Part shown: positions 6,722 through 32,000 of the stretch, piece by piece
Layout of the letters: each line of letters starts with the position of its first letter
How positions within the stretch are numbered: position 1 is the stretch's first letter
Translations under genes and position numbers: made by a program
NCBI GenBank assembly: GCA_964354495.1
Contig: CAYHAA010000017.1
Span: 36,939 to 68,938 of the forward strand
DNA length: 32,000 bases
Origin: an uncultured archaeon
Lineage (GTDB): Archaea; Asgardarchaeota; Thorarchaeia; Thorarchaeales; Thorarchaeaceae
Reading direction: 5' to 3'
Notes under the pieces: model-generated
Database searches by the model: none
Seen by the model: only the letters and a program-made list of their open reading frames with translations
What the model was told of the DNA's origin: nothing

Positions 6722-6750
6722 CTCTGTCTGAGCAGTATTTCTCGTGAACT

Positions 6751-6858
6751 ATGATGGCTCTAGCAACTAACAACCGAACGATATCTGCGCTGAAGAACAA
6801 GACCGGTCGAATTCTCTCGACCGAGGCAATCACCTACGCCTACCAGTATAGGAGGTAA
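6751..6858 (+). CDS. Small peptide 1 (35 aa): MMALATNNRTISALKNKTGRILSTEAITYAYQYRR
   Basis: Manual translation; TATA box upstream; paralogous to the next ORF with differences at silent positions. Confidence 0.72.
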   Translation: MMALATNNRTISALKNKTGRILSTEAITYAYQYRR

Positions 6859-6864
6859 AGAATA

Positions 6865-6951
6865 ATGACTCAAGCTAAGAGAACAATCAGGAATTACCAC
6901 GATAAGAGAATCTCCACTGATGCAATCACCTATGCATACATGTACAGGTAG
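6865..6951 (+). CDS. Small peptide 2 (28 aa): MTQAKRTIRNYHDKRISTDAITYAYMYR
   Basis: Manual translation; SD GGAGGT at 6851-6856, 8 nt before the ATG; shares RTI...STxAITYAYxYR with peptide 1. Confidence 0.75.
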   Translation: MTQAKRTIRNYHDKRISTDAITYAYMYR

Positions 6952-6957
6952 ATCACG

Positions 6958-7065
6958 ATGACCCCCGAGAAAATTGTTCTTGAAAATCACTCTAGCTCGC
7001 CCAACGACAATGCCAAGCGTTGTTGCATGACTCCTGAGGAAGTGCTCATGCTCGAAGCAACCTGA
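6958..7065 (+). CDS. Possible third small ORF (35 aa): MTPEKIVLENHSSSPNDNAKRCCMTPEEVLMLEAT
   Basis: Starts 6 nt after the peptide 2 stop and fills the gap to the convergent gene; only a weak SD (AGGT). Confidence 0.25.
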   Translation: MTPEKIVLENHSSSPNDNAKRCCMTPEEVLMLEAT

Positions 7066-7098
7066 GCACTTCATTCTTTGTTTTCCGTACTTCAATCA

Positions 7099-7701
7099 CT
7101 ACATATCTGCCTTCACGATCCAGCTGACAAGCTCAGAATTCAGAGGATTCTCCTTGACGAACTCCTCGCGATAGGTTCCGCTCTTGAAGGCAAGAAGAAC
7201 ATTCTGCATCCCTCCATCGAAACCCACAATTCTCACTGCTCTTGCAAGCGAATTGGATCGGAAGGCAATCACTGTTGCAATCAGAGACACTGCAAAGATT
7301 ACAGTAAAGGTGAATACCCATGGAGAGATAGAAGTCCCTCTTGATATCGAATCGCCCAACAACAACAGACCGAAGAACATGAAAGCCATCGCAAGTCCAT
7401 CTACTATGAGGCACAATGATTTGTAGCGATCTTCCCCCTCGTCGGTGTAGTAATGATCAGCACATACTTGGATAGGCAGAACTCTCAGGTTAGGTTGTGG
7501 AATTCCTTGCTTTCTCCGAACCCGAGGGTCAAAGGAGGGGTCCCATTCACGTCGTAAGTACTGAGGCCTTCCGGATACAATGGTCAGGCGCGATGTTGTT
7601 GTTGCAGGATTTCCGCAGACAGGACATACTCTCGGGAAACGTGCTCTGGAGATGTCTACACGAACAATGGGTTCATCAAGGTAGAACTTCCTCGGGCTCA
7701 T
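7099..7701 (-). CDS. Membrane protein with N-terminal zinc-binding-like motif (CPVC...CADH) and two TM helices
   Basis: CxxC plus distal CxxH, followed by two hydrophobic segments. Confidence 0.8.
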   Translation of the reverse strand: MSPRKFYLDEPIVRVDISRARFPRVCPVCGNPATTTSRLTIVSGRPQYLRREWDPSFDPRVRRKQGIPQPNLRVLPIQVCADHYYTDEGEDRYKSLCLIVDGLAMAFMFFGLLLLGDSISRGTSISPWVFTFTVIFAVSLIATVIAFRSNSLARAVRIVGFDGGMQNVLLAFKSGTYREEFVKENPLNSELVSWIVKADM

Positions 7702-15867: not shown

Positions 15868-16096
15868 GAAGTGCACAAAAACCAGAGTGACACATAGATA
15901 GGATAGGCATAGTCGTTAAAATCTTTGTTGTGGCAACCTAATCATCTCAGTTCACGTAAATGAAGTTGATAGACCGTTTATTGATTTCTAATCCCTTCAT
16001 ACCATTCCTTTTAATGATTAGGGGGTTATGAAGTAGGAAATGTGCATTAGACATACTTTACACATGTTGTTCATAACTATGTCAAGAGGTGAAGAA

Positions 16097-16177
16097 ATGG
16101 TCTTCGACGATGATGATTGGGACGACGATGACGAAGACTGGGACGACGATGATGATTTGGACGACGATGATTTCTAG
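16097..16177 (+). CDS. Ultra-acidic 26-aa peptide MVFDDDDWDDDDEDWDDDDDLDDDDF
   Basis: Strong SD GAGGTGA at 16086-16092; GAC/GAT codons are mixed rather than a pure microsatellite. Confidence 0.7.
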   Translation: MVFDDDDWDDDDEDWDDDDDLDDDDF

Positions 16178-16273
16178 TTCCATTCTGCATCGTTTCGTCA
16201 CAGACCAATCAGCGGTCTGTACTAGTCACCTGAGCAACATCAACTAAGTGTACTAATGTATGGAGGTGACACA

Positions 16274-16375
16274 ATGGGAAGCAAGAAACCAATGACTAGA
16301 AAGCCGAAGAAGGGAGCAAAGGCGGCGCATAAAGAAGGACAGCCTGGGCCTAGTGAAGAGAAGCCCGCTGCATAG
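16274..16375 (+). CDS. Lys-rich 33-aa peptide MGSKKPMTRKPKKGAKAAHKEGQPGPSEEKPAA
   Basis: Full-length SD GGAGGTGA at 16262-16269 before the ATG. Confidence 0.68.
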   Translation: MGSKKPMTRKPKKGAKAAHKEGQPGPSEEKPAA

Positions 16376-16547
16376 TGCGGACAACTAGGGACTGGTGAGT
16401 CGGCTTTGTATGAAGTTCCAGTTCGCTGGAGGGACTCATCGGTCACCTTTCTTTTCTTGTGATAGATCTGCAGGAAGTACTTCGTGTTTCTTTGTTTTAC
16501 ATAATGCTAAAATCCTAGCTAGGCAGTCCTGCAGCAGACTGATTGAA

Positions 16548-16883
16548 ATGAACACTAGGAGGTATCCAGATTGTATCAAGGCTCTAGCGAGAGCTAGGGT
16601 TCCTTTGTCAGGAGTGCACGGTTGGGTCGCTCAAGGAAAAGAGTTCCAGATGGTGTTCTTTGAGATAGAATCAGGAGCGCAGGTCTCTCCACATAGCCAT
16701 GGCGAGCAGTTCGGATATGTATTCGAAGGTGAGATAGTTCTCACAATTGGAGAGGACACTCGGACGTACAGAGGGGGAGATTCGTACCATATTCCAGCCG
16801 GAGTAGTTCATCAAGCAAAATTCATAACATTTGTCAGAGTGGTGGACTTCTTCTTGGAGCCGAATCGCTATAGAACTGAGTAG
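16548..16883 (+). CDS. Cupin domain protein
   Basis: PHSHGEQFGYVFEGEI...GDSYHIPAGVVH cupin motifs; probable ATG 16548. Confidence 0.92.
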   Translation: MNTRRYPDCIKALARARVPLSGVHGWVAQGKEFQMVFFEIESGAQVSPHSHGEQFGYVFEGEIVLTIGEDTRTYRGGDSYHIPAGVVHQAKFITFVRVVDFFLEPNRYRTE

Positions 16884-17029
16884 AGTAGACTCATGATGCC
16901 TTGGAGAAATATACCTATGGCATCAATATGACCAGGCTGTTTCGAAATGACAGGTAGAATGAACTTGGTACGGTATCAAAACACTTTAACCAGACAATTA
17001 GACGTAGCGGCAGTAGGAAGGACAAGGCT

Positions 17030-18322
17030 GTGGACTTCAAGGACCAAGACCGCTCTGATCAGAACTTTGCATCAGATGTTCTAAGATACTCCCAATTCGC
17101 CACAGTCCTCAACCTCTCCATAGTGACCTTCTTGGTACTACTAGGATTGAACATGGTTTCACCGATTCTTCCTAGCTATGCAGAGAGATTTCAGGTTTCG
17201 TACACTCTTGTTGGCTTCGTGATATCCTCCTTCGCTGTCGCAAGAATGATATTGGATATTCCGGCAGGGCTCCTCTCAAGAAGACATGACAAGAAGAATA
17301 TCATGATATTTGGCTTAGCCCTGCTTTATGCCTCGTCCATAATGGCAGGCCTTGCACCAGACTACACTACTCTGGTAATAGCAAGGATGATTGAGGGAGC
17401 AGGTTCTGCATGCTACGTCACAGCAGCCACTGTCTTCCTCGCACAGATATCAGGAAAAGAAAAGCGGGGGCAGTGGATGAGCCTCTATTCAGGCATGCTG
17501 TTACTGGGAAGCATTTTTGGTCCAACCTTCGGAGGCCTCATAGCTTCAGCATCCGGAATACGAGCTCCATTCTTTGCCTATGCGGCAGTAGCAGGACTAG
17601 GTGTGATTCCTACTCTCGTCTTGCCTAAGATTGAGAACTCCTCGCGGGCATCTGTGCATGACGGAAACAGATCGACCCTCCAAGACATGTGGCAGGTGCT
17701 GACCCATCCTTCATTCCTCCTCGCAACATTTGCCACCTTTGCTCTGTTCTTCATCCGAACTGGAGTGAGAAGTACCCTTGTTCCGTTGTTTTCTGCGAAT
17801 AACTTGGGATTGGACACAAGCTACATAGGAGGAATTCTTACAGTGGCAGGAGTGGCGACTGCAGCCACCATGGTTCCGATGGGAAAGCTCTCTGATCGAA
17901 TCGGAAGAAGAAATCCTCTGGTGCTATGTCTACTTCTGACAGCAGTCATCACAGTGTGGATTCCCTTCTCTAGTAATCTGCTCGAACTGTCGATTTCTAT
18001 GGCGATCTATGGCTTAATCGTAGGTCTATCAGGGCCGATTGCCGCATACGTAACAGATGTGTCGCCGCAAGACAAGCTCGAGGTCTCGATGGGACTCTAC
18101 CGAATGATAAGCGACATGGGATTCATTGCTGGGCCACTGCTCCTTGGCTACATAGCAGATGCAACAGCAATACCCGTAGCTGGAGCGACCCATTCGGGGC
18201 TCATCGGCATACTGCCTTTTGCAGCAGCTTCCCTAATCTTAGGGATGGCAGGTCTCTCACTTCTAAGAGCTCAGGACCCAATGAGGAAGACAGTTCGACG
18301 CGACTCAGAAGCAGTGGATTAA
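17030..18322 (+). CDS. MFS transporter (DHA1-like)
   Basis: GLLSRRHDKK motif-A variant, ARMIEGAGSA, GPTFGG, GKLSDRIGRR; 12 TM segments. Confidence 0.92.
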   Translation: MDFKDQDRSDQNFASDVLRYSQFATVLNLSIVTFLVLLGLNMVSPILPSYAERFQVSYTLVGFVISSFAVARMILDIPAGLLSRRHDKKNIMIFGLALLYASSIMAGLAPDYTTLVIARMIEGAGSACYVTAATVFLAQISGKEKRGQWMSLYSGMLLLGSIFGPTFGGLIASASGIRAPFFAYAAVAGLGVIPTLVLPKIENSSRASVHDGNRSTLQDMWQVLTHPSFLLATFATFALFFIRTGVRSTLVPLFSANNLGLDTSYIGGILTVAGVATAATMVPMGKLSDRIGRRNPLVLCLLLTAVITVWIPFSSNLLELSISMAIYGLIVGLSGPIAAYVTDVSPQDKLEVSMGLYRMISDMGFIAGPLLLGYIADATAIPVAGATHSGLIGILPFAAASLILGMAGLSLLRAQDPMRKTVRRDSEAVD

Positions 18323-18460
18323 AGATTGAAGAAAGCGGATGACACCCAAAGAATAAGTCAAATAACGGATATGCACAGTTGGAGAAGCAAGTCTAGCGGA
18401 GTACATTCTGCAGAATTCATGATTCGCGGGCAATTGAATTCTCTTGGGAGACTGGCAACT

Positions 18461-20188
18461 ATGAAGTATTCAATAGCAATTGCAGGAGCAGCAGGGCAGG
18501 GAATCGATACCGTAGCAGATTTTCTAGCAGCCATCCTGAAGGAATCGGGTCTACATGTTTTTGTTTGGAGAGAATTCATGTCTAGGATAAGAGGAGGTAT
18601 CAATTCAGTGCAGCTCAGAGTGACAGATGAGAGAACAGGAGCCTATACATTCAGAACGAGTATCGCAGTCGTCCTAGACAGTGGTGCTTCCGAGCATCTG
18701 AACAGACACTCTCGTATTAGCGATGACACAGTCATCGTGGGTGAGCAGAAAAACATCGAAACCATTGACCATGACCCGAGATATGTGATAGCGGCACCAT
18801 TCTCGGAGATTGCCAAGGAGGTTGGTGGTGCAATCTACTTGAACTCGATAGCAGCTGGCGTAGTTGCGGCATACTTCAACGTGAAGGAGTCGATTGTTCA
18901 AGCCTACCTCAGTGAGCGGTTTAGTTCAAAAGGGGAAGAAATCGTCAAAAAGAATACTGATGCGTATACGAGAGGATTTCAAATTGGGCAGAGAATTAGT
19001 GACATTCTGGGCCCCATGCGCATTAGATCAGATTCTGGTGTGCGTTCACAACTTCTGTTGAGCGGTAGCGAGGCCATAGCCTTGGGTGCACTTGCAGGCG
19101 GCTGCAACTTCATTTCCTCCTACCCAATGTCACCCTCAACGGGCGTTCTTACATTTCTAGCACAGCATGCGAGATATTTCGGTGTTCTAGTAGATCAAGC
19201 TGAAGACGAGATAGCCGCAATGAACAAAGGTCTTGGAGCATGGTATGCTGGCGGACGTGCGATTGTGACAACCTCAGGAGGAGGATTTGCCCTGATGACT
19301 GAGGGGCTCAGTCTTGCGGGTATGTTAGAGAGTCCGATGGTGATACATCTTGCACAAAGACCGGGACCCGCAACGGGATTGCCAACAAGAACGGGGCAGG
19401 AGGATCTTAAGCATGCCCTTGGTGCATCTCACGGCGAGTTTCCCAGAGTGATCTATACTCCGGGAACATACGAAGACGCATTCTTTCTCACCCAGAGAGC
19501 GTTCAACACGGCAGACCAATATCAAGTACCAGTCTTTGTTCTAACAGACCAATTTCTCCTTGACTCATTGGGGACTCTTCCAATGTTGAAACTAACAGAC
19601 ACAAAGAGAGAGCAACATGTAGTCAAGACGAGGAGCAATTACAGAAGGTATCTCTTGACAGAAACGGGTATCTCTCCCCGAGGAATTCCCAGTTATGGAG
19701 AGGGCCTCGTCGTTGTAGACAGTGATGAACATGATGAGAGTGGGCACATAACAGAAGACCTGCACCTTCGAACCAAGATGGTAGACAAGAGGCTGAGAAA
19801 GAAGACCATACTGCTGCGCGAGAACACAATCCCTCCGACACTGGTAGGAGCAAAGGAGCCGAACATTCTTGTCATCGCATGGGGATCCAACTATCATGTC
19901 GTCAAAGAGGCGATATCCGAGCTTGGCCAGGACAGTATCGCCATGCTCCACTTTAGCCAGGTCTATCCATTGCATGAGACCTCACTTGCGTATCTTCGTT
20001 CAGCAAAGAGAGTGGCAATCGTTGAGAATAATGCATCAGCTCAGTTCGCCGGACTGATTCAGAGAGAAACGGGATTTGCAATCGCTAGTGACAGCATGCT
20101 CCTGAAGTACAATGGACTTCCCTTTGCTGTGGAAGAGGTGGTGGACTTTCTGCGGGGTATAGCAAAACAGGAGATGATTATGAATTGA
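18461..20188 (+). CDS. 2-oxoacid:ferredoxin oxidoreductase alpha subunit (gamma-alpha fusion)
   Basis: [50 protein letters not shown]; probable ATG 18461. Confidence 0.95.
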
Positions 20189-21072
20189 ACCCGGATGATT
20201 TTGAACTAATGAACGATGTTCAGTACGACATTGCCTGGTGCCCAGGCTGCGGCAACTACCAGATCAGAAGTGCATTGATGCTCGCCCTTGCGGAGCTCAA
20301 TTTGAGGCCCCAAGAGACTGTCATAGTTTCGGGCATAGGTCAGGCTGCAAAGACACCGCACTATGTACGCACAAACGTGTTCAACGGGCTGCATGGAAGA
20401 GCCCTACCAGCCGCAATGGCAATCAAAGCAGCCAATCCGGGGTTGACAGTCATTGCAGAGAGTGGTGATGGATGTATGTATGGCGAAGGCGGCAATCACT
20501 TGATGCATACCATGCTCAGAAACCCAGTTATCACTGTCTTTGTGCATAATAACATGGTCTACGGTCTGACCAAGGGCCAAGCATCTCCCACTAGCCAGAG
20601 AGGCTTTGAAACGCCTGTGCAGCCTGCTGATAGACAAGGCGTGACCTCTGAACCATTCAATCCACTTGCCCTTGGCGTGGCAATGAATGCGTCATTTGTG
20701 GCAAGGGCCTTCATTGGTGACACAGAGCAAACAAAGGAGATAATGAAGAAAGCAATCCAGCACAAAGGGTTCTCGCTTGTAGACATCTTCCAGCCATGTG
20801 TCACATACAACAAGATCAACACATTTCGATGGTTCAAGAGCAACACATACTACTTGGACGATGCATATGATCCTACAGACCGATTGGCTGCATTTGAGAA
20901 AGCCATCGAACGTGATAGGTATCCACTTGGTGTTCTCTACAGAAGTCTTCCAAGGGCCACATTCGAGGAGAATTCAGGCATCTATGATGTGGACAAGAGA
21001 CCTCTGTTTCAGCGTGCCATGGATAAGAAGAAGCTAAAGGATTTGATTCAAACAAAGGTCAGCGGACTATAG
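20185..21072 (+). CDS. 2-oxoacid:ferredoxin oxidoreductase beta subunit
   Basis: [54 protein letters not shown]; TTG start overlaps the alpha stop (TTGA). Confidence 0.95.
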
Positions 21073-21366
21073 AAACGCAGTACTTGCACTGCTCAGGCGT
21101 TAGAAGCGAACAGCTATCACAAAAATAGTAATCCAAGCGGGTCATAGGCCTAGGACGCTCATACAACCCATTCTCGCAATGTCTTTGTGACCCATCACTC
21201 TTCAGTCGTTTTGAGCGATGGGTTCAATGCGTAAATGCTCTGTGTCCTTTGCACACTCATCCGTCTGGACTAATTAACTATAGTGAAAATTATGATTTAA
21301 ACTCTCTGTTATCTGCAGTCCATTCGATCTTTTTCCAGAAGACTAAGGGATTGCTTAAGGCATGAT

Positions 21367-21546
21367 TCACGAAGGAGCATAATAGCAATTCTTTGGGGAT
21401 ACCAGTTTCCCTTCCTTTTGCAGGGTCTTGATGATCTTAGAAACCTCAGCCTTTTCGATGCCTGTGATATCTGCCACCTCTCCGGCCTTCAGGGGTTTTG
21501 TGGACTTCTTGAACGCATTGTAGACGATTTCCTTGTTGTCAGGCAT
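21367..21546 (-). CDS. Small winged-helix DNA-binding protein (59 aa): MPDNKEIVYNAFKKSTKPLKAGEVADITGIEKAEVSKIIKTLQKEGKLVSPKNCYYAPS
   Basis: Manual translation, below the track cutoff; clear HTH plus wing pattern. Confidence 0.88.
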   Translation of the reverse strand: MPDNKEIVYNAFKKSTKPLKAGEVADITGIEKAEVSKIIKTLQKEGKLVSPKNCYYAPS

Positions 21547-21738
21547 TTAACTCTTCACCAGCAACTGGTACTGTACGTTGCCTTTTAAGGAGCCGCTGAA
21601 GCTCTTTCACAGTAATGTTGTACTTATAGCTAGATAGAATCATGAGATTCTCAGGCGTCAAATCTCTTTAGAGGGCAAATCAGAGAATGACCAAGATTGA
21701 AGAAATCGCGGTCCGCCGCACGAAGCTGTGACATATCG

Positions 21739-21825
21739 ATGGATACAAGAGTGTTAGTTGCTGCAATTGTTGTGATGGCCCTGTTCATGGGCAGTATCGC
21801 AACAATCGTCTGCGGTATTTTATGA
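21739..21825 (+). CDS. Possible 28-aa single-TM peptide MDTRVLVAAIVVMALFMGSIATIVCGIL
   Basis: Uninterrupted hydrophobic helix in an otherwise unexplained intergenic region; no clear SD. Confidence 0.3.
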   Translation: MDTRVLVAAIVVMALFMGSIATIVCGIL

Positions 21826-22087
21826 TTGGGTAGAGAGCATGAAACATGTGGATGAATCATGAGCTGGATTGGAAGTGAAAGTATTGATCTCTAAGAGCCA
21901 ATTACTGTGGGGTCGTACTATTGATCCAAGACAAACCCTGATGTCGAAAGAGCCGGATTGTATACTGATTCCATGAAGACAACTGAGGGGCAGTCTTAGA
22001 TAATCCGACAAGCAAAAGCTCTCGCCCATTGTCTATGATACGGGAATTTGTTGATTACAGGTGGGGTGCTTTTGAACAGCTCACCCG

Positions 22088-23071
22088 TCAATGCTTGACA
22101 GCACCAATGAGTCCATTCTCATTGGTCAACTCTGCTTGATTTCTACTTTGTAAGATTCTAAGAAGGTCATGACTCTCAGCCAAGGCTAGGACAAGCGAAT
22201 TCGTATCATAGTCCCCATAGATTATTCTTGAGATCTCGTAGACTGTCTGAGGGCTGTGCGTCAAAGAGTCAGCGGCCTTCTGGAGTTTGCTGTCATATTC
22301 AGCACGCAATGTCTCGACTCTAGATGCAATGTCAAGTATTGGTTCTCTGTGACCAGGAAGTGCGATATAGCCTTCTCTGGATGAGATTCTGTTCAGCGAA
22401 TCAAGGTAGGTTATCATGCCTATTCTTTCAGAACTGTCAAATGAGATACTTGGGTTTGAACTTATATCTCCCAAGACATGGTCTCCACTAAAGATGACTT
22501 GCTGTCCTTCACATACAAAGCATGTTGACCCAGGAGAGTGACCTGGGACCCAGACTGCAGTAACTTCGCCAATACCTGTTTTGAAAGATGCGTTGTCTTC
22601 GAAACAGTGAACTGCTGGAACAGACTCTCCCATTGACTTGAAGAAGGCTGTGCGACCTTTTGCAAGCTTCAGGGCCTCATTCTTTGGGACACCAGATGTC
22701 ATTATTAGCTTCACAATAGGCTCCAAGTAGTGCTCCATGTATCTCTCATAATTGAGAAGCGCCTCTGCATCCCTTCGATGAATCCATACCTCTGTAGCAC
22801 CGCCATGAATACGCGCCCGTTCTCCAACGAATTGCGCCACTAGCCCAATATGATCAATGTGATTGTGTGTTAGGAGAATCTGTTCAATCTCAGACAAATC
22901 ATAGGACAATGCATGAAGTTCTCTCTGCATTGTTTCTAGACCCTTGGAGGTCTTTGGACCGGTGTCAATCAGAGTGAGTGGTTTGCCTTCTATCAAGTAA
23001 CAATTGACGTTGCCAACAGGAAACGGTGTAGGTATCTCAATTCTAGATACTCTATCGATTGGATTCGTCAT
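22088..23071 (-). CDS. MBL-fold metallo-hydrolase
   Basis: LIDTG, THNHIDHIG (HxHxDH), PGHSPGS, FSGDHVL, LPGH. Confidence 0.93.
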   Translation of the reverse strand: MTNPIDRVSRIEIPTPFPVGNVNCYLIEGKPLTLIDTGPKTSKGLETMQRELHALSYDLSEIEQILLTHNHIDHIGLVAQFVGERARIHGGATEVWIHRRDAEALLNYERYMEHYLEPIVKLIMTSGVPKNEALKLAKGRTAFFKSMGESVPAVHCFEDNASFKTGIGEVTAVWVPGHSPGSTCFVCEGQQVIFSGDHVLGDISSNPSISFDSSERIGMITYLDSLNRISSREGYIALPGHREPILDIASRVETLRAEYDSKLQKAADSLTHSPQTVYEISRIIYGDYDTNSLVLALAESHDLLRILQSRNQAELTNENGLIGAVKH

Positions 23072-23188
23072 GAGGGGGAAGACCAATTCAGATACTCTCT
23101 ACATGGGTGATATAAAGAGGGCTGTTCAGCCAATCACTCAACACAGATCAAAAGACGGAGAGTCCATAGTACTAGTTGACTCGATGAG

Positions 23189-23245
23189 AATGAAAGGATG
23201 ACTCAACAGTCGCAGCGAGGGCAAGTTCCCTATCCTAGCGTCGTT
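23189..23245 (+). repeat. Intergenic repeat copy E
   Basis: AATGAAAGGATGACTCAACAGTCGCAGCGAGGGCAAGTTCCC...GCGTCG aligns with the copies at 30399 and 31894. Confidence 0.8.
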
Positions 23246-23311
23246 GGCGGTGCTTACTGTGTTGGTTCGGAGGACGCAAACTTAGCCTCGCAGCATAGAT
23301 CTGTTGATGAC

Positions 23312-25795
23312 TCAGGTAAGCCTCCTTCGTACCACCACAGCGGCAACAACAAGAACTACAACCCCGACTGTCAGGTAGACAAAGTGCGGCACGCCCATTG
23401 TGCTTGCAGTGATCCAATCGAGAATCGGATTGGATGCCAAGACCTCAATCGGTCCGCCTGGTTCTGACATCGAATCATAGTCCCTATACCAAGCCCTTGC
23501 GTCCGGTGCGACAGCGTCTATGCTGGCATTGAACCAGATGCATATGGCCCGCCTCTCTGTGTATACGCCCGGATTAGTAGGCGTAATGTTGTATTGTGTT
23601 GACCAGCTCTCTCCTGGATCAAGTGACGCCAGCTTGAACAGCACTGGAGACGACGCATCGTACGATCTGAGTCCAGGGCAGATTCCGTCAATGATTCTCA
23701 CGTCATAAGCCGTTTCAACGCCCATGTTGGTGACAGTAATGTTGTACCACATAGTGTTCCCTGGGTAAAGTTGTTTCGTGACCTGTCCCAGACTACACGT
23801 CTTGGTTATCTTGAGGTATGACAGTGAAATCTCAAGTGTCGGTTCAGAATCAAGGCTGAACGACATTCCAATGTCTGTGCTCATGAAGAGTTGTGGACTT
23901 GCCTTGTCATATGAGTGGGCAGTTTCATTGTATGTAGTGTCCAGATTGACCGCACAAAAGTCATCAAGACCGTTCACAAGTGTAGGCCGAACATCGAAAC
24001 CGTCACTGATAGTCTGATTGAACAGCAGCCAGAGCTCATCAGGTTCCTTGGCGATCCAAGTGCCATCAATCCGAGCAGACTGTGCCGAGAGACTTGATAT
24101 GAGGCTGCCCGCGAAGACCTGCACAGTTTCATCCCAGTTCTCACTCAGAAACTTTTTCATCTCTTGCCGGTTCCAACCTGTGAGAGCAGGAAGCGATATC
24201 CCATATTCTGTAAACAGGCTATCTATAAAGCCAAAGCCCTTTGAGGCAATCGAAGCGTTGAATTCCGCACCCCAGCTGCCATTCTCCAACAGTGAAATGA
24301 GACCGTAGCTGTCGATGCTCCTGAGCAGCGCGTCGAACAACACTGGGCCGAGCGCACCATCAGGATCTATCCAGTAGACTCCATCACCATTATCGAGATT
24401 CCCGAATATCGCAAGGCTAAGCAGAGGAGAGGGTATATCGAATAGGTGGCCTTGAGGATGAATGAGAATGTCACGAATCATGTGTGAACCGGCTTGGCCT
24501 TCACCCCACGACCAGTCGAACGATGGCCCCCACGCATCATTGAACCACTTGACAATTCCACGACCCTGCACCGTGTAGTTCGTTTCGGAACTGACCGAAC
24601 CAAGTTGATTGACGAGTCTCATCAGGACATCATAGTCTTCAGTTCCAGGCATAATGACCCCTCCATCCTTCTCAAGAGGAATCTCGAACGGATAAGAGGG
24701 CATGTCATCCAATCGAAGCCATTCGTCTGGCACACCTTGGACACTCATGCCATTGGGTCCAGTCGCTCCGATGATTGACAGAGAACACGCAGATGGATCC
24801 TCGTACATCTTATTCATTAGAGGGCCATCATAATCAAGATAGTCGAGCAATGACCAGACTGAAACATCCTCCCAGCTATGGTAATGGTCAAGGTACAATG
24901 AGGCTCGACCCATAATCATACTGTCACAGTCTTCATCAGGACCCGGCGCAGTTTCAGCTTCATGTCGAACAGCAATGGGTCCCGGATAGATGCCTATCCC
25001 GTTCATAAGCGAGGGACTGGCCCTGTCAACGCGCTTCAGAATCAGTCCGCATCCGCTATCATCGACAGGCCATCCGGTCGAGTTTACGATCGACATGAAA
25101 CCTCCCATCGATGCTAGTATATCTAGGAGATGCGCCACATCCTCGTAGTCTCCGATTGTCGAGAACACAATGTCTATGATTCTGTATAGCGTATACGTAA
25201 TCTCTTCAATGTCGCCCTCATTGTCGACAGTGGCGTTCTGGGGTATAGTATAGACTATGGGCACCGAGGACTCCGGCCACGTGATGACACTACCAACGAG
25301 TGCCATCAGGACTTCCTTAGCAAGACTGAACGCCTGCGTCCAGTTGAGGCTGGTCACGTAGGGGTCGCTAGTATCATCTGGGATTACATATATCGGGCTG
25401 ACAACTGCATCGACAATTAGCGCTGGACCCAAGACCTCACCCGTGAGCGCCGTGAACTGGCTCACAGCTTCGATGGCAAGCTCCGTGACATATCCTACGT
25501 TTCCTTCGATCTGCTCGCGAGTCACGATTTGAGCCTCCTTGAAGTGATTCCCAGCAGCACAGGTGGCTCCATAGTAGTGCGACGCATTCTGGACAGACAC
25601 AACATTGACTGAGAGTCCACCCTCTGACCCGATGTTCATGGTGAGCATCTCGAGAGTGCGATACCCATCTTCGACATCAGGCGGCGTTGGGGCGGAAATG
25701 ACAGCAGGAGCAGCCCAGCAGCCGCCTAGCTGTGATGCAATGAGTAGCAGTGCAATTCCTAGTACGTACACCCGGACGAACGAGTCTCTTATCAT
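23312..25795 (-). CDS. Large secreted surface protein with C-terminal Ig-like (DUF11-like) domain and TM anchor
   Basis: Signal-like N-terminus; YNITVTNMG.ETAYDVRI.D...L.PGESW...YNITPT.PGVY; C-terminal TM plus RRR; many sequons. Confidence 0.85.
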   Translation of the reverse strand: MIRDSFVRVYVLGIALLLIASQLGGCWAAPAVISAPTPPDVEDGYRTLEMLTMNIGSEGGLSVNVVSVQNASHYYGATCAAGNHFKEAQIVTREQIEGNVGYVTELAIEAVSQFTALTGEVLGPALIVDAVVSPIYVIPDDTSDPYVTSLNWTQAFSLAKEVLMALVGSVITWPESSVPIVYTIPQNATVDNEGDIEEITYTLYRIIDIVFSTIGDYEDVAHLLDILASMGGFMSIVNSTGWPVDDSGCGLILKRVDRASPSLMNGIGIYPGPIAVRHEAETAPGPDEDCDSMIMGRASLYLDHYHSWEDVSVWSLLDYLDYDGPLMNKMYEDPSACSLSIIGATGPNGMSVQGVPDEWLRLDDMPSYPFEIPLEKDGGVIMPGTEDYDVLMRLVNQLGSVSSETNYTVQGRGIVKWFNDAWGPSFDWSWGEGQAGSHMIRDILIHPQGHLFDIPSPLLSLAIFGNLDNGDGVYWIDPDGALGPVLFDALLRSIDSYGLISLLENGSWGAEFNASIASKGFGFIDSLFTEYGISLPALTGWNRQEMKKFLSENWDETVQVFAGSLISSLSAQSARIDGTWIAKEPDELWLLFNQTISDGFDVRPTLVNGLDDFCAVNLDTTYNETAHSYDKASPQLFMSTDIGMSFSLDSEPTLEISLSYLKITKTCSLGQVTKQLYPGNTMWYNITVTNMGVETAYDVRIIDGICPGLRSYDASSPVLFKLASLDPGESWSTQYNITPTNPGVYTERRAICIWFNASIDAVAPDARAWYRDYDSMSEPGGPIEVLASNPILDWITASTMGVPHFVYLTVGVVVLVVAAVVVRRRLT

Positions 25796-26038
25796 GTGCA
25801 ATCCCTCACTCAAAATCCAAACAGCGCGAACTGCTACTAGATAGCTCTGGGAAGCTTATGAAGCTTCGCTTAACAAATGAGCGTGTTTCTGAGCAGCTCG
25901 TAATCTGAGTGTTCAGATAATCACTCAGCACAGATTGCCAAAGCTCACGCTGACGAATCACGATGCTAATATGCACAGGACGAAGCTTGACTATGAAGAC
26001 CTTAAGTCCGGAGCAAAGGCACAAAGGAATACGGTCAG

Positions 26039-26965
26039 ATGCAGAACATGATCGGAGAACTCAGCAAAAGAATTGCAGATAATCAAAGAAATCCCTATAT
26101 CTTTGGGGCGGTAGCAGGACTCGCTCTATATGTAGTAGTACTGTTTTTCAGAGGGTGGGACATTATTTCATTGATACTCGGGGAGGAGTTCTTGACACTC
26201 GCAGTAGTCACGGGTACAGTCATGCGTTTTTTGGGTGGTCTTGGAATAGCACTGACCTATGCATCCTTTTGCGCATTTGTCTTCAGAGTGTCGTCATCTT
26301 GGATTAGAGGGAATAGAAAAAGGCTCAGACTGACGACCATGTTAGTCCCAATCCCGGCGCTAATCTTGGCAGCATATGGAATCTATACAATATGGAGTGC
26401 CTTCTTCCTTTCAAGGCCGTTGTCCCTCATCGAGTATGCCTCAGGCATCTTTGGTGTATGGTCGCTAATTATCATGGTCTACATATTTCCAATAGTCAAG
26501 AGCGAATATACCCCAGACTTGGATCAAGCTAAGACTGTCGGTGTACATCAAAGAATAGATGCATGGAAGTTCTCAGTCTGGAGAGGATATCAATCCAAGA
26601 TTAGAAAGGACTACGGACGTGTTGCTGAAGAGGAGTTTGAGAGATACGGGGCACGATTGTTCACAATACGTGCAGTCCTCAGCGGCCTCTTATTGCTTCC
26701 AATCTCGTTTGTTTTAATCACTGTCCCCCCGTTAGCGATAATAAGTGCAATACTGTGGGTGCGGATATTCTCATTAGATTATAGATGCTTCTCCGGATTT
26801 GAGAGAGGTATGTTAGTTCTTGTTACTGGATTGGTGGCTCTGCTCACCACTGTTACATTTCCGCCAGCAGAAACACAGGGATTCAACCTCTTCTTTAGTG
26901 TGGCCTCTGGAGTCGGGCTGCTGGTTGGACTGGTTTTGCTACTCATCATTATCAGAAACAAGTGA
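26039..26965 (+). CDS. Multi-pass membrane protein of unknown function
   Basis: About 8 hydrophobic segments with a central charged loop; T-rich tract after the stop. Confidence 0.82.
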   Translation: MQNMIGELSKRIADNQRNPYIFGAVAGLALYVVVLFFRGWDIISLILGEEFLTLAVVTGTVMRFLGGLGIALTYASFCAFVFRVSSSWIRGNRKRLRLTTMLVPIPALILAAYGIYTIWSAFFLSRPLSLIEYASGIFGVWSLIIMVYIFPIVKSEYTPDLDQAKTVGVHQRIDAWKFSVWRGYQSKIRKDYGRVAEEEFERYGARLFTIRAVLSGLLLLPISFVLITVPPLAIISAILWVRIFSLDYRCFSGFERGMLVLVTGLVALLTTVTFPPAETQGFNLFFSVASGVGLLVGLVLLLIIIRNK

Positions 26966-27009
26966 GTCTGAATCAAACTGAGCCTGTTTTGTTTTGAAAA
27001 TGATTGAAA

Positions 27010-27060
27010 AATGAGGGGGTGGCTCAACAGCGAACAGCAACGGCGAGTCCCCTGATTACC
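27010..27060 (+). repeat. Intergenic repeat copy A
   Basis: AATGAGGGGGTGGCTCAACAGCGAACAGCAACGGCGAGTCCCCTGATTACC. Confidence 0.88.
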
Positions 27061-27170
27061 TCCATCCAGCTCCACGTACCGCCCATTGGCTGGTAGCGCG
27101 GGCTCACAGGATTTATTACTTGCAAAGCATGTATTCTCAAGTTAAGATATTGACTGTGGTGCAAGAAACT

Positions 27171-28460
27171 ATGGCCAAGGATTTGGAGAAGACTGAGCAG
27201 GAACGAACCGGTAAGTCGCAACTGAACGCGCGCAGAGTTGGAAGAAGAAAAGAAGTGACAGCATTGCTTCTGGCACTTGTCATGCTGATGGCAATGACAT
27301 CAACGATGTATAGCTTGCCAGCATCTGTAAATGCGTTGGCTCAGCAGCCGCTTATCGAGTTCATACGGACTGTTCAAGTAACGCCCGATGACCAATTCCT
27401 GACCGGCAGCTTCCCCCGCATCAATTATGTTTCAGCAACTGATCGTTTTGTTGTCACATTTGGAACAAAAGCCAGTACTGAACCGAACACATCTCTCGGA
27501 GCAGGATACGCCTACAAGGAGTACAATCTGGAAATGCAGGAAACGGGCGACTCTGGTCTTCTTGAGTGGTACGTCAATGCGAGCGAGGCAGGTGACTCAG
27601 GCTCCTGCATGGTCAACAGCACCTATTACTGCGCGTTCGTGTCGCAGGTCAACCCAGCTTACGGCTGGACTCTGATCAAATATGACGCAACCAACTGGAC
27701 ACGACTAGGAGAAGCGTTCTTCTTACTTGAGGACCCGAATCAGGGAAACTTGGACCCTTGCGTCGCGTATGTTAACGGGCAGCTTGACATCTGTAACCAG
27801 TACAACCCTTCGGGAATCTGGCAGGAGGGAAATTCATCTCGCCACTACTTCTTCACGGCAAATCTCGAACCGATAGGAATGATCACTGTCGGAGATACCC
27901 CACATATCTCCGGAGCATCCATCATCTTTGAAGATGGCATCTATTACTATGTTTCTGCAAACGAGTATGCTGGTGGTTTGGTATTGATGGAATACGATAG
28001 GGACTGGAACTATCTTGGGATGAAGGATCTAATGCCTCAGGCTCATTGGTCGCAAGGACTGGTTTCTGACGGACGGTACTTCTATCTCGCTTATCTGGAT
28101 ACCAGTCTAAGAGACCCGGAGAGCTTCTTTCCAGTCTACCCGAACGTGCGTCTGGCTGTATTTGATCGCAATTGGAACCTTGTGCACACCGAGAATGTCA
28201 CAGATTTCGCTCGTTCAGATTACAGGAAGGGAGGTAGGCCGTGGGTAATTCTTCACGAGAACCTGTTGTATCTGTCCTACGATGTGGACACTGTGAACGT
28301 CACGACAGAAGAGGAGGAAAAGAAGTGGCAGGCCTATGTGAGCATCTATGATATCTCAGGGTTGAGACAAGGAGATGCCTTGATTTGGCCGCTGCTTGTA
28401 GGAGGAGCTGTTGTTCTTGCCGCGGTAGCAGTCACATATGTTATCATGAAGAAACGTTAA
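27171..28460 (+). CDS. Secreted beta-rich (propeller-like) surface protein with C-terminal TM anchor
   Basis: Signal-like RRKEVTALLLALVMLMAM; aromatic beta-strand repeats (YDATNW, YDRDWN, FDRNWN); C-terminal TM plus KKR. Start uncertain (27129/27171). Confidence 0.85.
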   Translation: MAKDLEKTEQERTGKSQLNARRVGRRKEVTALLLALVMLMAMTSTMYSLPASVNALAQQPLIEFIRTVQVTPDDQFLTGSFPRINYVSATDRFVVTFGTKASTEPNTSLGAGYAYKEYNLEMQETGDSGLLEWYVNASEAGDSGSCMVNSTYYCAFVSQVNPAYGWTLIKYDATNWTRLGEAFFLLEDPNQGNLDPCVAYVNGQLDICNQYNPSGIWQEGNSSRHYFFTANLEPIGMITVGDTPHISGASIIFEDGIYYYVSANEYAGGLVLMEYDRDWNYLGMKDLMPQAHWSQGLVSDGRYFYLAYLDTSLRDPESFFPVYPNVRLAVFDRNWNLVHTENVTDFARSDYRKGGRPWVILHENLLYLSYDVDTVNVTTEEEEKKWQAYVSIYDISGLRQGDALIWPLLVGGAVVLAAVAVTYVIMKKR

Positions 28461-28587
28461 CGAATACCTAGTCAAGGAGAGGACAGTGTGAAATCCTCCC
28501 CCGGAACAAGCGTCTGGGCAGCGGGAGCATATGCGTTTCTCTTACAGCTCTCTTCAGGTCCGGTTCTATCCCGAGATGCTTGGCATA

Positions 28588-28749
28588 CTATGAGAGTGAT
28601 AGATTGGACTCTTTTGTCGCCTGTCGAATCATTTCTAGACTGCATGATTTGTGCTCGGTACACCACTGCTCGCACTTCTTTGCCCAGTGCTCTTCATGAT
28701 ACAATAGATGGCATTCCTCATATTCAAAGAGAATTCCATTTCTTTTCAT
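28588..28749 (-). CDS. Small Cys/His-rich protein (53 aa): MKRNGILFEYEECHLLYHEEHWAKKCEQWCTEHKSCSLEMIRQATKESNLSLS
   Basis: Manual translation; resembles a small archaeal family with a CxxC.xxY...WAxxCExWC..H.SC.LEI pattern (first Cys replaced by Tyr here). Confidence 0.7.
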   Translation of the reverse strand: MKRNGILFEYEECHLLYHEEHWAKKCEQWCTEHKSCSLEMIRQATKESNLSLS

Positions 28750-28816
28750 GAGTTAATCCTTCACATTTCCAAATATCACTCAATGATAGAGGAATTTGAG
28801 TAATGCTCTAATGAAA

Positions 28817-28867
28817 AATGAAAGGGGCGGCTCGACAGCAAACAGCAGGGGCGAGTCCCTGATTACC
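28817..28867 (+). repeat. Intergenic repeat copy B
   Basis: AATGAAAGGGGCGGCTCGACAGCAAACAGCAGGGGCGAGTCCCTGATTACC. Confidence 0.85.
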
Positions 28868-29163
28868 AGACTCCACCAGTCTATACTTCTCACTGTCAAG
28901 GTATCCAGTTCCTAGAAACGGCGGAATCTGCTTCTATTACATTTCTAATGCACGATGTCAGCCGTGAAAGAAGACACTCTTGCAGTATGGCTTCTTGCGA
29001 TGCTTGAACATTGTGGAGTATGTGCACATCGCCTGCGCTGAACGCCATTCTTAATTCAATGAGACATCCTGACTTTTGGTGCGTGATTCTATCTTCATGC
29101 AATTTGGAAATCACGGCATTGGGAGTGGAAATTTGTGGAAATCAGTGATAGAGGAAACCTAGA

Positions 29164-30306
29164 ATGAAGAGCAAGCTCATTAGCGTGGCTTGCATTCTAG
29201 TCTTAGTCCTCATTCTAGAGTCTGGAGCAATCTGTTTTGTGTCTGGAGCGAGTACGAGTGGGATTGTACTGACAAAAGCTGGACAGGTTGAAACTGGTGA
29301 TGCCTATGACGTATGGGTCGACACCGACAACGACATTGCCTATGTAACATGTGGTTATTCTGGCGTAAAGGTCTTTGATATGAATGATCCGAGTAATCCG
29401 ATTGAGATAGCAAACGTATCTTCTTCCTCAAATGGATATGCACATCAACTTGTCATGCATGATAATCTAGTATTCATAGGGGATGGTCATGGCGGACTCA
29501 GAATAATCGATTTCGAGAACATATCTAGCCCTGCTGTTCTGAGTCAGTTCACTGGTGATTATGCGTGGGACGTAGAAGTGATAGGAGATGTAGCCTTCGT
29601 TGCCAATGGATTCCCAGGCAGTGGCGGGAAACTGACGATTGTCAATGTGACGGATCCTACCACACCTACACTGCTGAGCAGTCTCATCACGATCGGAGAT
29701 GCAACCGATATTGAGGTTGTGGATAATCTGGCATTTGTGACAACAAGTTACAAAGGGTTCACTGTTTTTGACGTTGGTAACTACACTAATCCAATACTAC
29801 TAGCACAGTACATAGGACAGTCGACTAGCGATACTGACATGGGTGATCTTGAGATCGTTGGAGATTTGGCTTTTCTAAGTTATTGGGATAAGAGCCTCAA
29901 GGTACTGAACATAAGTGATTTATCAAACATCAGAGTTGTATCTGAATTTAATGAGAGTCTGGATGCCTTTTCTGTTCACATTGACACTGAGCGCAATCTT
30001 GCATTTCTCTGCGATCTTGAATTAGGACTACTGCTGCTAGATATTCAAAATCCAATTCAACTTACTGAAGTTACCCGCTACTTCGATGGCGGCAAGCCTA
30101 ACCGTGTTGAAGTGGTTGGTAATCTAGTCTATATGACAGACCAAGATAACGGGTTCGTCATTCTGGAAATCAGAGAGAGTGGTGGACTTAGCATAGACTT
30201 AGAACCGTTCTTACTCGTTGGTGGATTAGCAGCCATTGTTATCCTATACTGGTGGTTGAAAAAGGTAAGAACGCCCGGTGATAGCGTGGAGGGTGTTAAT
30301 GCCTAA
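29164..30306 (+). CDS. LVIVD-repeat surface protein with signal peptide and C-terminal TM anchor
   Basis: Repeated ~42-aa units (DVEVIGDVAFVANG...LTIVNVTDPTTP; DIEVVDNLAFV; VEVVGNLVYMTDQDNGFVILEI). Confidence 0.9.
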   Translation: MKSKLISVACILVLVLILESGAICFVSGASTSGIVLTKAGQVETGDAYDVWVDTDNDIAYVTCGYSGVKVFDMNDPSNPIEIANVSSSSNGYAHQLVMHDNLVFIGDGHGGLRIIDFENISSPAVLSQFTGDYAWDVEVIGDVAFVANGFPGSGGKLTIVNVTDPTTPTLLSSLITIGDATDIEVVDNLAFVTTSYKGFTVFDVGNYTNPILLAQYIGQSTSDTDMGDLEIVGDLAFLSYWDKSLKVLNISDLSNIRVVSEFNESLDAFSVHIDTERNLAFLCDLELGLLLLDIQNPIQLTEVTRYFDGGKPNRVEVVGNLVYMTDQDNGFVILEIRESGGLSIDLEPFLLVGGLAAIVILYWWLKKVRTPGDSVEGVNA

Positions 30307-30398
30307 CAGGAGATTCTGAAATTCCACCCAAGTGATGAATTAGATGGAATCCCCAGATAGTAAATGAAGAATCAACTGGGATGATTAGACGGGTGAAG

Positions 30399-30484
30399 AA
30401 TGAGAGGGTGGCTCAACAGCGAACAGCACGAGCAAGTTCCCCACTTTGGCGTCGGGGCAACCTTACGATTGTACCGCGTTCTCC
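30399..30484 (+). repeat. Intergenic repeat copy C (full hairpin form)
   Basis: GCTCAAC...GTTCTCC (30411-30484) folds as an imperfect long stem; near-collinear with copy D. Confidence 0.9.
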
Positions 30485-30518
30485 GCCGCCGCTACGTCGA
30501 AACTCTATCTGAGGTGAG

Positions 30519-30800
30519 CTACTCCAACCATTTGTATCCTTTACTTCTATGGATTATTTCAGTTACTCTGACGCCATGTTCTATGACGAAGTAAATGGCG
30601 CGATAGTCACCTATGCGTAATCGGTAGAGAGGTGGTTCGCCATGAGTTAGGAGTTTCTTGATGTCCGCGCCAGAACGTCTTCGAAAAATGGCGTCTTCCA
30701 ACTGCTCTAGATTCGATCTGACCCGATTCTTCTGTTTGGGGTCCAGTAAGTCTGACTGTGCAACTGCTGTCCTGGACAGCAAGACCCTATACTTGGTCAA
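30519..30800 (-). CDS. RelE/ParE-family type II toxin
   Basis: YRVLLS..A...DIKKL...LYRLRIGDYRAIY...V.EIIHRSKGY; probable TTG start at 30800 overlapping the antitoxin end. Confidence 0.9.
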   Translation of the reverse strand: MTKYRVLLSRTAVAQSDLLDPKQKNRVRSNLEQLEDAIFRRRSGADIKKLLTHGEPPLYRLRIGDYRAIYFVIEHGVRVTEIIHRSKGYKWLE

Positions 30801-30975
30801 GTGGAACGAACTCCTCTTCCTCGAGAATTCGTCTCTGCCTTCTGGCAAACTCCACTTGTTCGGCTATCTGAAGAAGACGACGAATTAGTTCGTCGTAGGT
30901 CTCTCCCTTCTGACCATATTTCTTCAGGAGATCACGTGTCTCTTTAGTCAGTGGAATCGTAGTGGTCTCGCCCAT
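30787..30975 (-). CDS. Ribbon-helix-helix-type antitoxin
   Basis: TTTIPLTKETRDLLKKYGQKGETYDELIRRLL with acidic tail EEEEFVPLDQV; immediately upstream of the toxin. Confidence 0.88.
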   Translation of the reverse strand: MGETTTIPLTKETRDLLKKYGQKGETYDELIRRLLQIAEQVEFARRQRRILEEEEFVPLDQV

Positions 30976-31028
30976 ATCTATCATAACTTATAATGTTGAT
31001 AACTACTTATAATTTCATTGAAGGGAAG

Positions 31029-31796
31029 TCAATAGTATACCTGCAAACGCATTACAGTATCACGTCCTCGAACAACAACTGGTTGGAATCCACGATTAGT
31101 GTACATACTACGAGGTCCTCGAAAGTGCGCGCCATCTTTACTCTCGTGCTTATTGCGAGGGTAGCCCTCAATCCACAATGCACCACGGGAGGCAGCGTCC
31201 GCAATAACACGATCGAGTAAGGCTGACGCAATTCCATGTCTTCTATAGGGCGGAGCAACCACGAAACACGAGATACCAATTATTGATGCTGACTCAGGAC
31301 CATTCGGATCAGCTTGTTGAAGAAGCTTATACTCACTGCGCAAAGATGCGTTTACCCATCCCACTGGTTTGTTATCAACATAGGCTAAGTACCCATATGT
31401 TTCTCCCTTTAAGAGGCGTTTGACCATGATTGATCGTGATTCACGCCATGGACGATCTAGGTTCTCATCTGTCGTAGGTAAATGTGGTTGGAGGCAGTAG
31501 CAGGATGCCCACCCAGGATTATCGGCGAAACCATCATGATCGAAAAAATGTAACCAATCATCTATGGAGTCCTTTGTGACTGGATGTATCGTGATTTCGC
31601 CGATTTCCTCTTTTCTTGCTGTATCACCTGTGAGTCGCTCTACTGCTTCTGCGTAATTGCAGGCGTAATTTCGTATCGCCCTTTTGGGATACTCCCAAGA
31701 ATGGATCCTTATACCATGTGTCACAAAAACATCTGCTAGCATTTCAAGGCTGTCCGCTTCAATCACTTCATCACAATCGAAACATTTGACTTTCAT
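31029..31796 (-). CDS. GNAT family acetyltransferase with N-terminal putative metal-binding domain
   Basis: GYLAYVDNKPVGW, ISCFVVAPPYRRHGIASALL, IEGYP, GPRSMYTNRGF; N-terminal CFDC...H...H. Confidence 0.88.
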   Translation of the reverse strand: MKVKCFDCDEVIEADSLEMLADVFVTHGIRIHSWEYPKRAIRNYACNYAEAVERLTGDTARKEEIGEITIHPVTKDSIDDWLHFFDHDGFADNPGWASCYCLQPHLPTTDENLDRPWRESRSIMVKRLLKGETYGYLAYVDNKPVGWVNASLRSEYKLLQQADPNGPESASIIGISCFVVAPPYRRHGIASALLDRVIADAASRGALWIEGYPRNKHESKDGAHFRGPRSMYTNRGFQPVVVRGRDTVMRLQVYY

Positions 31797-31893
31797 TGAC
31801 TATTCTCACTTGGTCAAGTTACATTTTTAATCCTGAAAGCAAACGAGAGAGAAGATAAACCTGACTTACACTCATCCGAAATTGACAATAAAC

Positions 31894-31979
31894 AATGGAA
31901 AGGGTGGCTCAACAGCCGCAGCACGAGCAAGTTCCTTGACTTGGCGTCGAGGCAACCTGATGATTGCACCGCGTTCCCC
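31894..31979 (+). repeat. Intergenic repeat copy D (full hairpin form)
   Basis: GCTCAAC...GTTCCCC (31907-31979). Confidence 0.9.
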
Positions 31980-32000
31980 GTCGAAGGCCCTTACCTCTCT

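Follow-up and report, generated by a model that had tools for sequence, protein, structure and literature searches.

Displaced 16S rRNA trailers delimit gene modules beside the 16S gene of a Thorarchaeaceae archaeon

The accessory region at the end of contig C17 (CAYHAA010000017.1) in the genome of an uncultured Thorarchaeaceae archaeon (assembly GCA_964354495.1) is divided into gene modules by a recurrent intergenic repeat. Here, the window denotes the whole stretch of 32,000 nt that was analysed, which forms the last 32,000 nt of C17; the assembly searched comprises 3.3 Mb and is 97.7% complete. This genome is designated G000, and other G numbers refer to the genomes of relatives. By nhmmer and alignment, five repeat copies (A to E) were located in the window, all on the same strand and every one intergenic, as a first-pass annotation of the sequence had described them. 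Their pattern reads on the plus strand of the window, while the sense of the native element, which is used below, is minus.

Copy A: 23154..23247, minus strand; nhmmer E 5.5e-10, profile positions 9-103; core GACTCAACAGTC
Copy B: 26981..27057, minus strand; nhmmer E 6e-12; core and short-form arm, aligned to native trailers
Copy C: 28807..28905 (nhmmer match 28807-28861), minus strand; short-form arm, from the breakpoint alignment
Copy D: 30355..30499, minus strand; nhmmer E 1.5e-41; long form with left arm, core and processing-stem arm with hairpin
Copy E: 31850..32000, minus strand; nhmmer E 5e-40; long form, cut by the contig end

An 18-nt core pattern yields three matches at ≤3 mismatches, compared with 0.06 expected in shuffled sequence. 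The nhmmer profile detects no copy in the housekeeping part of the window (1-23000), in agreement with the annotation, which had found none in the first 21 kb. The annotated unit of ~50 nt proved too short, since the conserved unit spans ~150 nt and reaches up to ~290 nt where a copy retains a 3′ fragment of the 16S rRNA gene. Copy E, reported to lack a complete right arm, is indeed cut, but the cause is a contig break inside the copy: it runs on into contig C30, where it comprises a spacer and a 16S 3′ fragment with its end at the base of helix 45, and its homology to the native copy extends to master coordinate 289. A coding function of the repeat was ruled out for either strand, as 1-nt indels between copies disrupt every frame. 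Likewise, an apparent Shine-Dalgarno sequence and start codon shared after three copies proved to be the reverse complement of the anti-Shine-Dalgarno end of 16S rRNA.

The native element lies at the far end of the array. The right end of contig C31 corresponds to positions 1232-1478 of SSU_rRNA_archaea (Rfam RF01959; minus strand, 85 bits), and this 3′ third of the 16S gene comes directly after the last copy of the array. The 5′ third is found at the start of contig C15, and only one 16S gene was detected in the genome; the genome-wide RF01959 search missed this truncated gene, which was detected by direct cmscan. Several copies carry the reverse complement of the 16S 3′ end, comprising helix 45 and the anti-Shine-Dalgarno sequence, beside the core, and the repeat is therefore the 16S 3′ trailer read on the opposite strand. 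In RNA sense, the core CUGUUGAGCC pairs with the conserved GGCUCAACAG in the 16S leader in four genomes, and it is followed by UUUUCAUUUUUC. Thus, the core represents the 3′ strand of the outer pre-16S processing helix together with an oligo-U (oligo-T) terminator. Each copy consists of this ~30-nt conserved core, a 16S-side arm formed by processing-stem hairpins, sometimes with the last ~95 nt of 16S, and a short far-side arm. Apart from the native one, the repeats are 3′ trailer copies displaced from the only 16S gene detected in this genome.

This identity bears on the reading put forward in the annotation, an integron array without integrase (CALIN) in which the repeats serve as attC sites. 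The GCTCAAC heptamer fits RYYYAAC, its opposite strand GTTGAGC fits GTTRRRY, and archaeal integrons, most of them CALINs, have been reported to be enriched in Asgard archaea (PMC9668308). However, each copy contains a single core-like heptamer with no inverse site in cis; GCTCAAC lacks a partner there because its complement is located in the 16S leader, beyond the 16S gene. With 150-290 nt, the unit exceeds the 55-141 nt of attC sites, and the copies fold no better than shuffled sequence (z -0.8 to +1.3), these attC criteria being judged from motif, unit size, and fold. Moreover, genes occur in both orientations, no IntI was found in the genome (which a CALIN would not require), and the core was not found in the accessible part of the supplementary text of the archaeal integron paper (PMC9668308). 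The sequence is that of the 16S trailer, and a canonical integron can in practice be excluded.

A family of small structured RNA genes, or of repetitive extragenic palindromic (REP) or miniature inverted-repeat transposable element (MITE) type repeats unrelated to gene mobility, is very improbable. Its attraction lies in hairpins with compensatory changes between copies, but this covariation is accounted for by the descent of the arm hairpins from pre-rRNA trailers that functioned in different species. Taken singly, copies do not fold above shuffles because the core is only one strand of the processing helix, and the consensus fold of nine long copies is weak on either strand (about -12.6 kcal/mol). 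In the window, an Rfam gathering search returned no family and a scan for tRNA genes returned none. In addition, the repeats occupy a single locus and a single strand rather than being dispersed in both orientations. Among the fallback readings of the annotation, scars of tandemly accreted modules come closest to the evidence.

Genome-wide, the nhmmer profile detects 16 copies over ~35 kb, 15 displaced copies and the native one. They are confined to the end of C17, to C30, and to C31, always on one strand; further copies, which the annotation had suggested to look for beyond position 32000, are thus present, and they are not scattered. C17 and C30 share a 55-nt overlap, identical at the end of the former and the start of the latter, C30 terminates in the left arm of a copy, and C31 begins in the core of one. 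As all other contigs lack the repeat, the order C17, C30, C31 follows. The window therefore covers the far ~9 kb of the array, distal from the 16S gene, and copy A is the most distant and most decayed trailer copy, with a right arm that cannot be typed. Modules between copies are 0.8-3.8 kb long, and the GC content of the array (0.44-0.49) does not contrast with the 0.477 of the genome. The array cargo includes toxin-antitoxin systems (four to five PIN pairs, two ParE, and HicAB), two restriction nucleases, a DNA methylase, GNAT, MFS, and methyltransferase genes, BNR and LVIVD surface proteins, an S9 peptidase, a TnpB-like gene, and a 1630-aa protein.

Within the window, the copies delimit four modules at this one locus, as the annotation had proposed.

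Module 1: 23312..26965; 833-aa secreted DUF11-like surface protein at 23312-25813, minus strand (Pfam)
Module 1, second gene: 26039-26965, plus strand; 308-aa membrane protein
Module 2: 27120..28806, plus strand; 446-aa secreted or anchored protein at 27120-28460 with no Pfam match, and a small open reading frame region at 28488-28806
Module 3: 29164..30306, plus strand; LVIVD-repeat surface protein (PF08309, E 1.5e-29)
Module 4 (30519..31796 overall), ParE toxin: 30519-30848, minus strand (Pfam)
Module 4, DUF7557 antitoxin: 30853-30975, minus strand (Pfam)
Module 4, GNAT acetyltransferase: 31029-31796, minus strand (Pfam)
25-nt direct repeat, left copy (GTTCAG..AATCACTCA.CACAGAT): 23124..23148, no strand assigned; regex match
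25-nt direct repeat, right copy: 25911..25935, no strand assigned; regex match

Pfam matches to LVIVD, ParE and DUF7557, GNAT, and DUF11-like domains agree with the earlier gene calls. The membrane-protein gene of module 1 is syntenic in G012, where it adjoins the MBL-fold gene and the surface-protein gene is absent. The two 25-nt direct repeats, of which the left one sits just outside copy A and upstream of the promoter of the MBL-fold gene, bracket the 2.8 kb (copy A and the 833-aa surface-protein gene) that are missing from G012, a member of the same genus in which the MBL-fold and membrane-protein genes stand side by side. The outgroup G005 is compatible with both a 2.8-kb insertion in G000 and a repeat-mediated deletion in G012. 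In module 2, the homologue of the 446-aa gene forms the 16S-adjoining module of G017, and the small open reading frame region precedes a different module in G012.

Elsewhere in the array and in G012, BNR-repeat proteins and the 1630-aa protein, all of which end immediately ahead of a trailer copy, have a C-terminal motif in common (..DYD..L.E..DLL.RIKKGLPP), with sites at L021 (contig C31) 12680-12749, L020 13150-13323, and in L053 (the G012 module adjoining 16S). The repeat homology in those modules therefore reaches into a coding 3′ end that converges on 16S.

The repeat is present in 26 of the 36 family genomes searched and in none of 24 genomes outside the family. On a 120-kb contig of G012, 12-13 co-oriented copies spanning 15 kb start immediately after a complete 16S gene, and past these copies come the membrane-protein, MBL-fold, and then housekeeping genes syntenic with positions 15886-23135 of the window. 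Copies downstream of a 16S gene on the same contig were found in G012, G005, G002, G029, G030, G017, G077, G082, and G076, directly after it in most. We further surveyed 33 Asgard genomes in which the 16S gene is complete and its downstream flank covers 3-16 kb. In 13 of these genomes, which represent at least three to four families, the native trailer recurs downstream of 16S, with 40 matches on the same strand and none on the opposite strand at equal threshold. Since each lineage repeats its own trailer, the phenomenon tracks the local 16S flank and not one recognition sequence. The trailer-bounded islands of other Asgard families hold defence-type genes (SIR2-STAND, HEPN, AbiV, LRR).

Several side observations were made in these relatives. 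In family f5, genomes G040 and G172 (L099 10969-15843, L113 10886-15826) encode a ~1630-aa protein that converges on 16S, with 31% identity between the pair, in trailer-bounded islands beside SIR2-STAND and HEPN genes; homology of the 1630-aa protein adjoining 16S in G000 to these giant proteins was ruled out, as they are unrelated. In G012 (C81:53890-54521; L052 13890-14521), a mini-cassette of ~0.5 kb encodes a small membrane protein between two trailer-core copies, in inverted orientation and 13 kb upstream of 16S. It occupies a variable spot flanked by TATATAGTCATTT-type repeats, and the orthologous spot of G000 holds other DNA. Moreover, the contigs of G081, G078, G063, G035, and G014 (L103, L104, L110, L112, L119) stop 1-290 nt past the 16S 3′ end. 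Trailer repeats are expected to break assemblies, and array frequency in draft genomes is therefore underestimated. Among sequencing runs, no RNA run was listed as a match, and the matching DNA runs share ≤0.17 of the words; four wetland runs gave only short unitigs that break at the core, in G012-type order.

Comparison of orthologous loci shows the modules to act as units, and module boundaries in relatives coincide with the repeats, an outcome which, according to the annotation, would favour a cassette model. Between cores, the LVIVD module measures 1582 nt in G000 and 1585 nt in G012 (93.7% identity), and the ParE/GNAT module measures 1495 nt in both (95.7% identity), compared with 88.9% identity in the flanking housekeeping DNA. 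Between these two modules, G012 has two additional ones. Module neighbours and order differ among G012, G017, G002, and G030; in G030, which belongs to a different genus, the three modules adjoining 16S mirror those of G000. In G002 (C139; L058 2487-5031), the ParE pair and the GNAT gene occupy separate modules, set apart by trailer copies and a further module. As they are joined in G000 and G012, loss of a core can fuse modules, and gain of one can split them. In a five-way junction alignment, the sequence left of the core goes with the left-hand module and the sequence right of ...CAGCA with the right-hand module. Accordingly, in G012 the left arm of copy D accompanies the LVIVD module and the right arm accompanies the ParE/GNAT module, and the mapped breakpoints all fall inside the ~30-nt core.

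In master coordinates, 16S-side ends lie at about 129-138 (three copies), at about 168-169 (two), and at 212, the mature 3′ end (one), with further ends at 277-291, the base of helix 45 within 16S (three copies with junctions a few nt apart). The junction sequences at these ends differ between copies. Thus, as in gene-end displacement, an irregular junction on one side stands opposite shared homology on the other. The arms in the G000 array match native trailers of its own type, the G012 type, the short form of G005/G017, and the G002/G029 type, so that at least three species groups are represented. Copy C, for example, has the short-form arm native to G005/G017 (typing 20/18 compared with 10 for the type of G000 itself). 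Consequently, each displaced copy was once a working trailer, often in another lineage. The two subtypes noticed in the annotation are confirmed as the long and the short form of 16S trailers native to different species of the genus. When orthologous displaced copies are compared between G000 and G012, core identity is 0.89-0.94 and does not exceed that of the arms. Displaced cores are thus under no special constraint, and their similarity reflects descent from constrained native trailers. As to decay, copies A to C are the farthest and most decayed, yet diverged copies (2095 and 3397) are also found near 16S, and arm types alternate.

The explanation that we favour, with moderate confidence, is stepwise displacement together with homologous exchange, both anchored on the 16S flank and with no need for a dedicated integrase. 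New DNA would enter beside 16S by recombination anchored in the highly conserved 16S/trailer sequence, with an irregular second junction. Entry at this end is proposed because, for recombination between species, no stretch is better conserved than 16S. The incoming piece would bring a working gene end and trailer and shift the old one downstream. Later loss, reordering, and exchange of modules between related archaea would then proceed by homologous recombination within the nearly identical core.

Several points weigh against this pathway. All mapped breakpoints lie in one ~30-nt core, and a site-specific enzyme would yield the same pattern; the two modes of exchange cannot be told apart from sequence alone. 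Further, the modules of the LVIVD and of the 446-aa protein stand at different internal positions across species, and insertion at internal cores, for example via circular intermediates, is therefore needed in addition to entry on the 16S side. The 16S-side ends cluster at a few places rather than scatter, which hints at preferred cut sites. Finally, an enzyme may be involved, given a conserved TnpB gene beside 16S with 16S-matching sequences at its guide position.

The first of these points leads to a dedicated site-specific cassette system, in which a recombinase, encoded by the genome itself or provided in trans from a mobile element, would act on the ~30-nt core. Modules would excise as circles and re-insert at any core, like integron cassettes or the integrase-less satellites that target tRNA genes. 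Besides the breakpoints and the identical modules at different internal positions, the strict co-orientation, the toxin-antitoxin- and restriction-rich cargo reminiscent of chromosomal integrons, and the two-copy mini-cassette at a second locus of G012 speak for such a system. Against it, IntI (TIGR02249) and tyrosine recombinase (PF00589) searches gave no match in the 97.7%-complete genome while being positive in all 14 control genomes, and the IntI-like recombinase that the annotation had suggested to look for beyond the window was thus not found. Pfam searches of about 35 open reading frames of the array revealed no site-specific integrase and no replication module, and no recombinase domain was found in the 17 largest open reading frames of trailer-bounded islands from other Asgard families. 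Within the family, PF00589 is patchy (15/38 genomes), while the repeat is present in most genomes. Moreover, the core of displaced copies lacks extra constraint, lineages repeat their own trailers rather than a common recognition sequence, and the arms and even 16S fragments are homologous too, which a pure site-specific system would not need. We therefore consider this system unlikely.

The TnpB gene raised above is best described before its role is weighed. A TnpB-like gene (PF07282) lies on C31 at 5937-7673, minus strand. Its orthologue group is single-copy, with 62-80% amino acid identity, and is located 4-11 kb downstream of 16S in the same sense in G000, G015, G029, G030, and G076, hence in at least four genera; orthologues are also present in G007, G024, and G034. 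Other TnpB copies in these genomes are dispersed and show 43-58% identity.

TnpB and post-stop region: L021 (C31) 5650-7676, minus strand; in relatives L107:5861-7950, L123:719-2800, and L108:4228-6280, also L128, L129, and L130

Past the TnpB stop codon come a conserved scaffold and then one to three units; every unit has GGTCGG at its end and precedes a 14-27-nt segment derived from 16S; scaffold and segments are seen in seven genomes. The matches are short and mismatched and emerged only on alignment to full 16S, and an exact 14-mer search of the TnpB flanks against the array gave no match. Four segments are distinguished: ACTAGGGATTCC.GGTT (antisense), ACGTCCCTGCTTCTTGCA... (sense; 27 nt in G030), ACCTTGTTACGACT (antisense), and GGATCACCTCCT with the start of the trailer (sense). 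In the insertion-free 16S of G017, every segment starts right after CGGAT or AGAAT, and with this NGRAT-type neighbourhood the segments look like TnpB targets next to a target-adjacent motif (TAM).

The corresponding sites in 16S are occupied in several genomes. In G000, the 16S 3′ domain (L021 12945-13317, minus strand) carries four hairpin insertions of ~30 nt: after GTCCCTGC, within GTCGTAAC/AAGG, within CCTGGA/TCCCTAGT, and between GGAT and CACCTCCT. These insertions coincide with the four guide-like sites. All four sites are interrupted in G000 and G029, two in G015, G012, and G028, one in G030 and G076, and none in G017, G005, G077, and G070. An intact 3′-end segment accompanies an interrupted own allele in 3/3 genomes, and it is degenerate in G030, where the allele is uninterrupted. 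In G007, the 3′-end segment continues into a whole displaced trailer copy, and the displaced G000 copies E, 1980, and 8578 begin ≤5 nt from the helix-45 site. No TnpA was found.

The 16S segments in the TnpB flank fit RNA-guided homing, and they fit relics of earlier insertion sites too. Under homing, the TnpB adjoining 16S, with its putative guides to uninterrupted sites of the 16S 3′ domain, would drive the hotspot: naive alleles would be cut, repair from a carrier would copy the protected 16S end together with linked modules, and repeated breaks would create the displaced copies. The conserved position of the gene, the motif in front of each segment, the resident insertions inside the four sites, the pairing of intact guide and interrupted allele, and the starts of copies E, 1980, and 8578 are all consistent with this model. 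Conversely, arrays are present in G012, G017, and G005, where the orthologue was not found, and the islands of other families lack TnpB. In addition, only the first unit abuts the full scaffold, and the tandem units may be relics rather than guides, while two guide-site pairs match uninterrupted own alleles, with mismatches beyond position 10-12. Homing as the driver of the hotspot thus appears doubtful to us, and displacement with homologous exchange at the 16S flank remains the reading that we prefer.

Displacement of this kind has parallels in known systems. In Prochlorococcus, islands are built by tycheposons, with tandem accretion of integrative elements at tRNA and tmRNA 3′ ends (bioRxiv 10.1101/2020.12.28.424599). 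There as here, the end of a stable-RNA gene is the landing site, arrivals leave a partial copy of the gene end and push older modules deeper, and cargo modules without integrase occur; here, an intact 16S stands at the end of the array. In contrast to tycheposons, the target is a 16S trailer rather than a tRNA, neither an integrase nor a replication module turned up in the modules or in the G000 genome, and up to 16 copies enclose very small modules of 0.8-3.8 kb that are exchanged at internal copies. Sedentary chromosomal integrons and CALINs share the co-oriented array of small, promoter-poor, toxin-antitoxin-rich modules that are common to species in different order and joined in a conserved repeat. 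They differ from the array described here, which has neither attC anatomy nor IntI, a crossover region in the middle of a 150-nt unit, genes in both orientations, and a repeat taken from the host rRNA flank.

A conserved gene sequence as homology anchor for variable DNA is also known from orphan modules of rhs and contact-dependent inhibition (CDI) loci and from SAR11, in which the hypervariable island HVR2 lies between the 23S and 5S genes and the rRNA genes were proposed as sites of homologous recombination (PMC2217521). In these systems, too, old gene ends persist downstream and no dedicated recombinase is needed; here, however, the duplicated unit is a non-coding rRNA trailer, repeats are numerous, and the island is split into single-gene modules. 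A selfish element directly at an Asgard 16S end is exemplified by HeimM2, inserted between 16S and tRNA-Arg in Heimdallarchaeum (PMC8813620), and TnpB/IS200-IS605 omega-RNA elements likewise present a nuclease gene followed by flank-derived sequence at the guide position. Unlike those elements, the TnpB described here is stably kept beside 16S as a single-copy gene in several genera, the segments at its guide position match four sites within 16S, and most array modules carry no nuclease. In the literature searched, including papers on the ANME-1 hotspot and on Asgard mobile elements, no description of trailer-bounded cassette arrays was found.

Such repeats must not be annotated as attC sites. 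Their presence explains the poor assembly of 16S in these lineages, in which the contigs of several relatives end just after the gene. If the TnpB lead holds true, one selfish system would join an RNA-guided nuclease, small insertions in an essential rRNA, and the accretion of gene cassettes, and would help to explain some of the unusual insertions seen in rRNA genes of Asgard archaea. If homing operates, repair from a carrier would spread the protected gene end along with linked DNA, and repeated breaks would build an integron-like array. More generally, the array would add the flanks of rRNA genes to tRNA genes and integrons as sites at which prokaryotes collect and exchange accessory genes.

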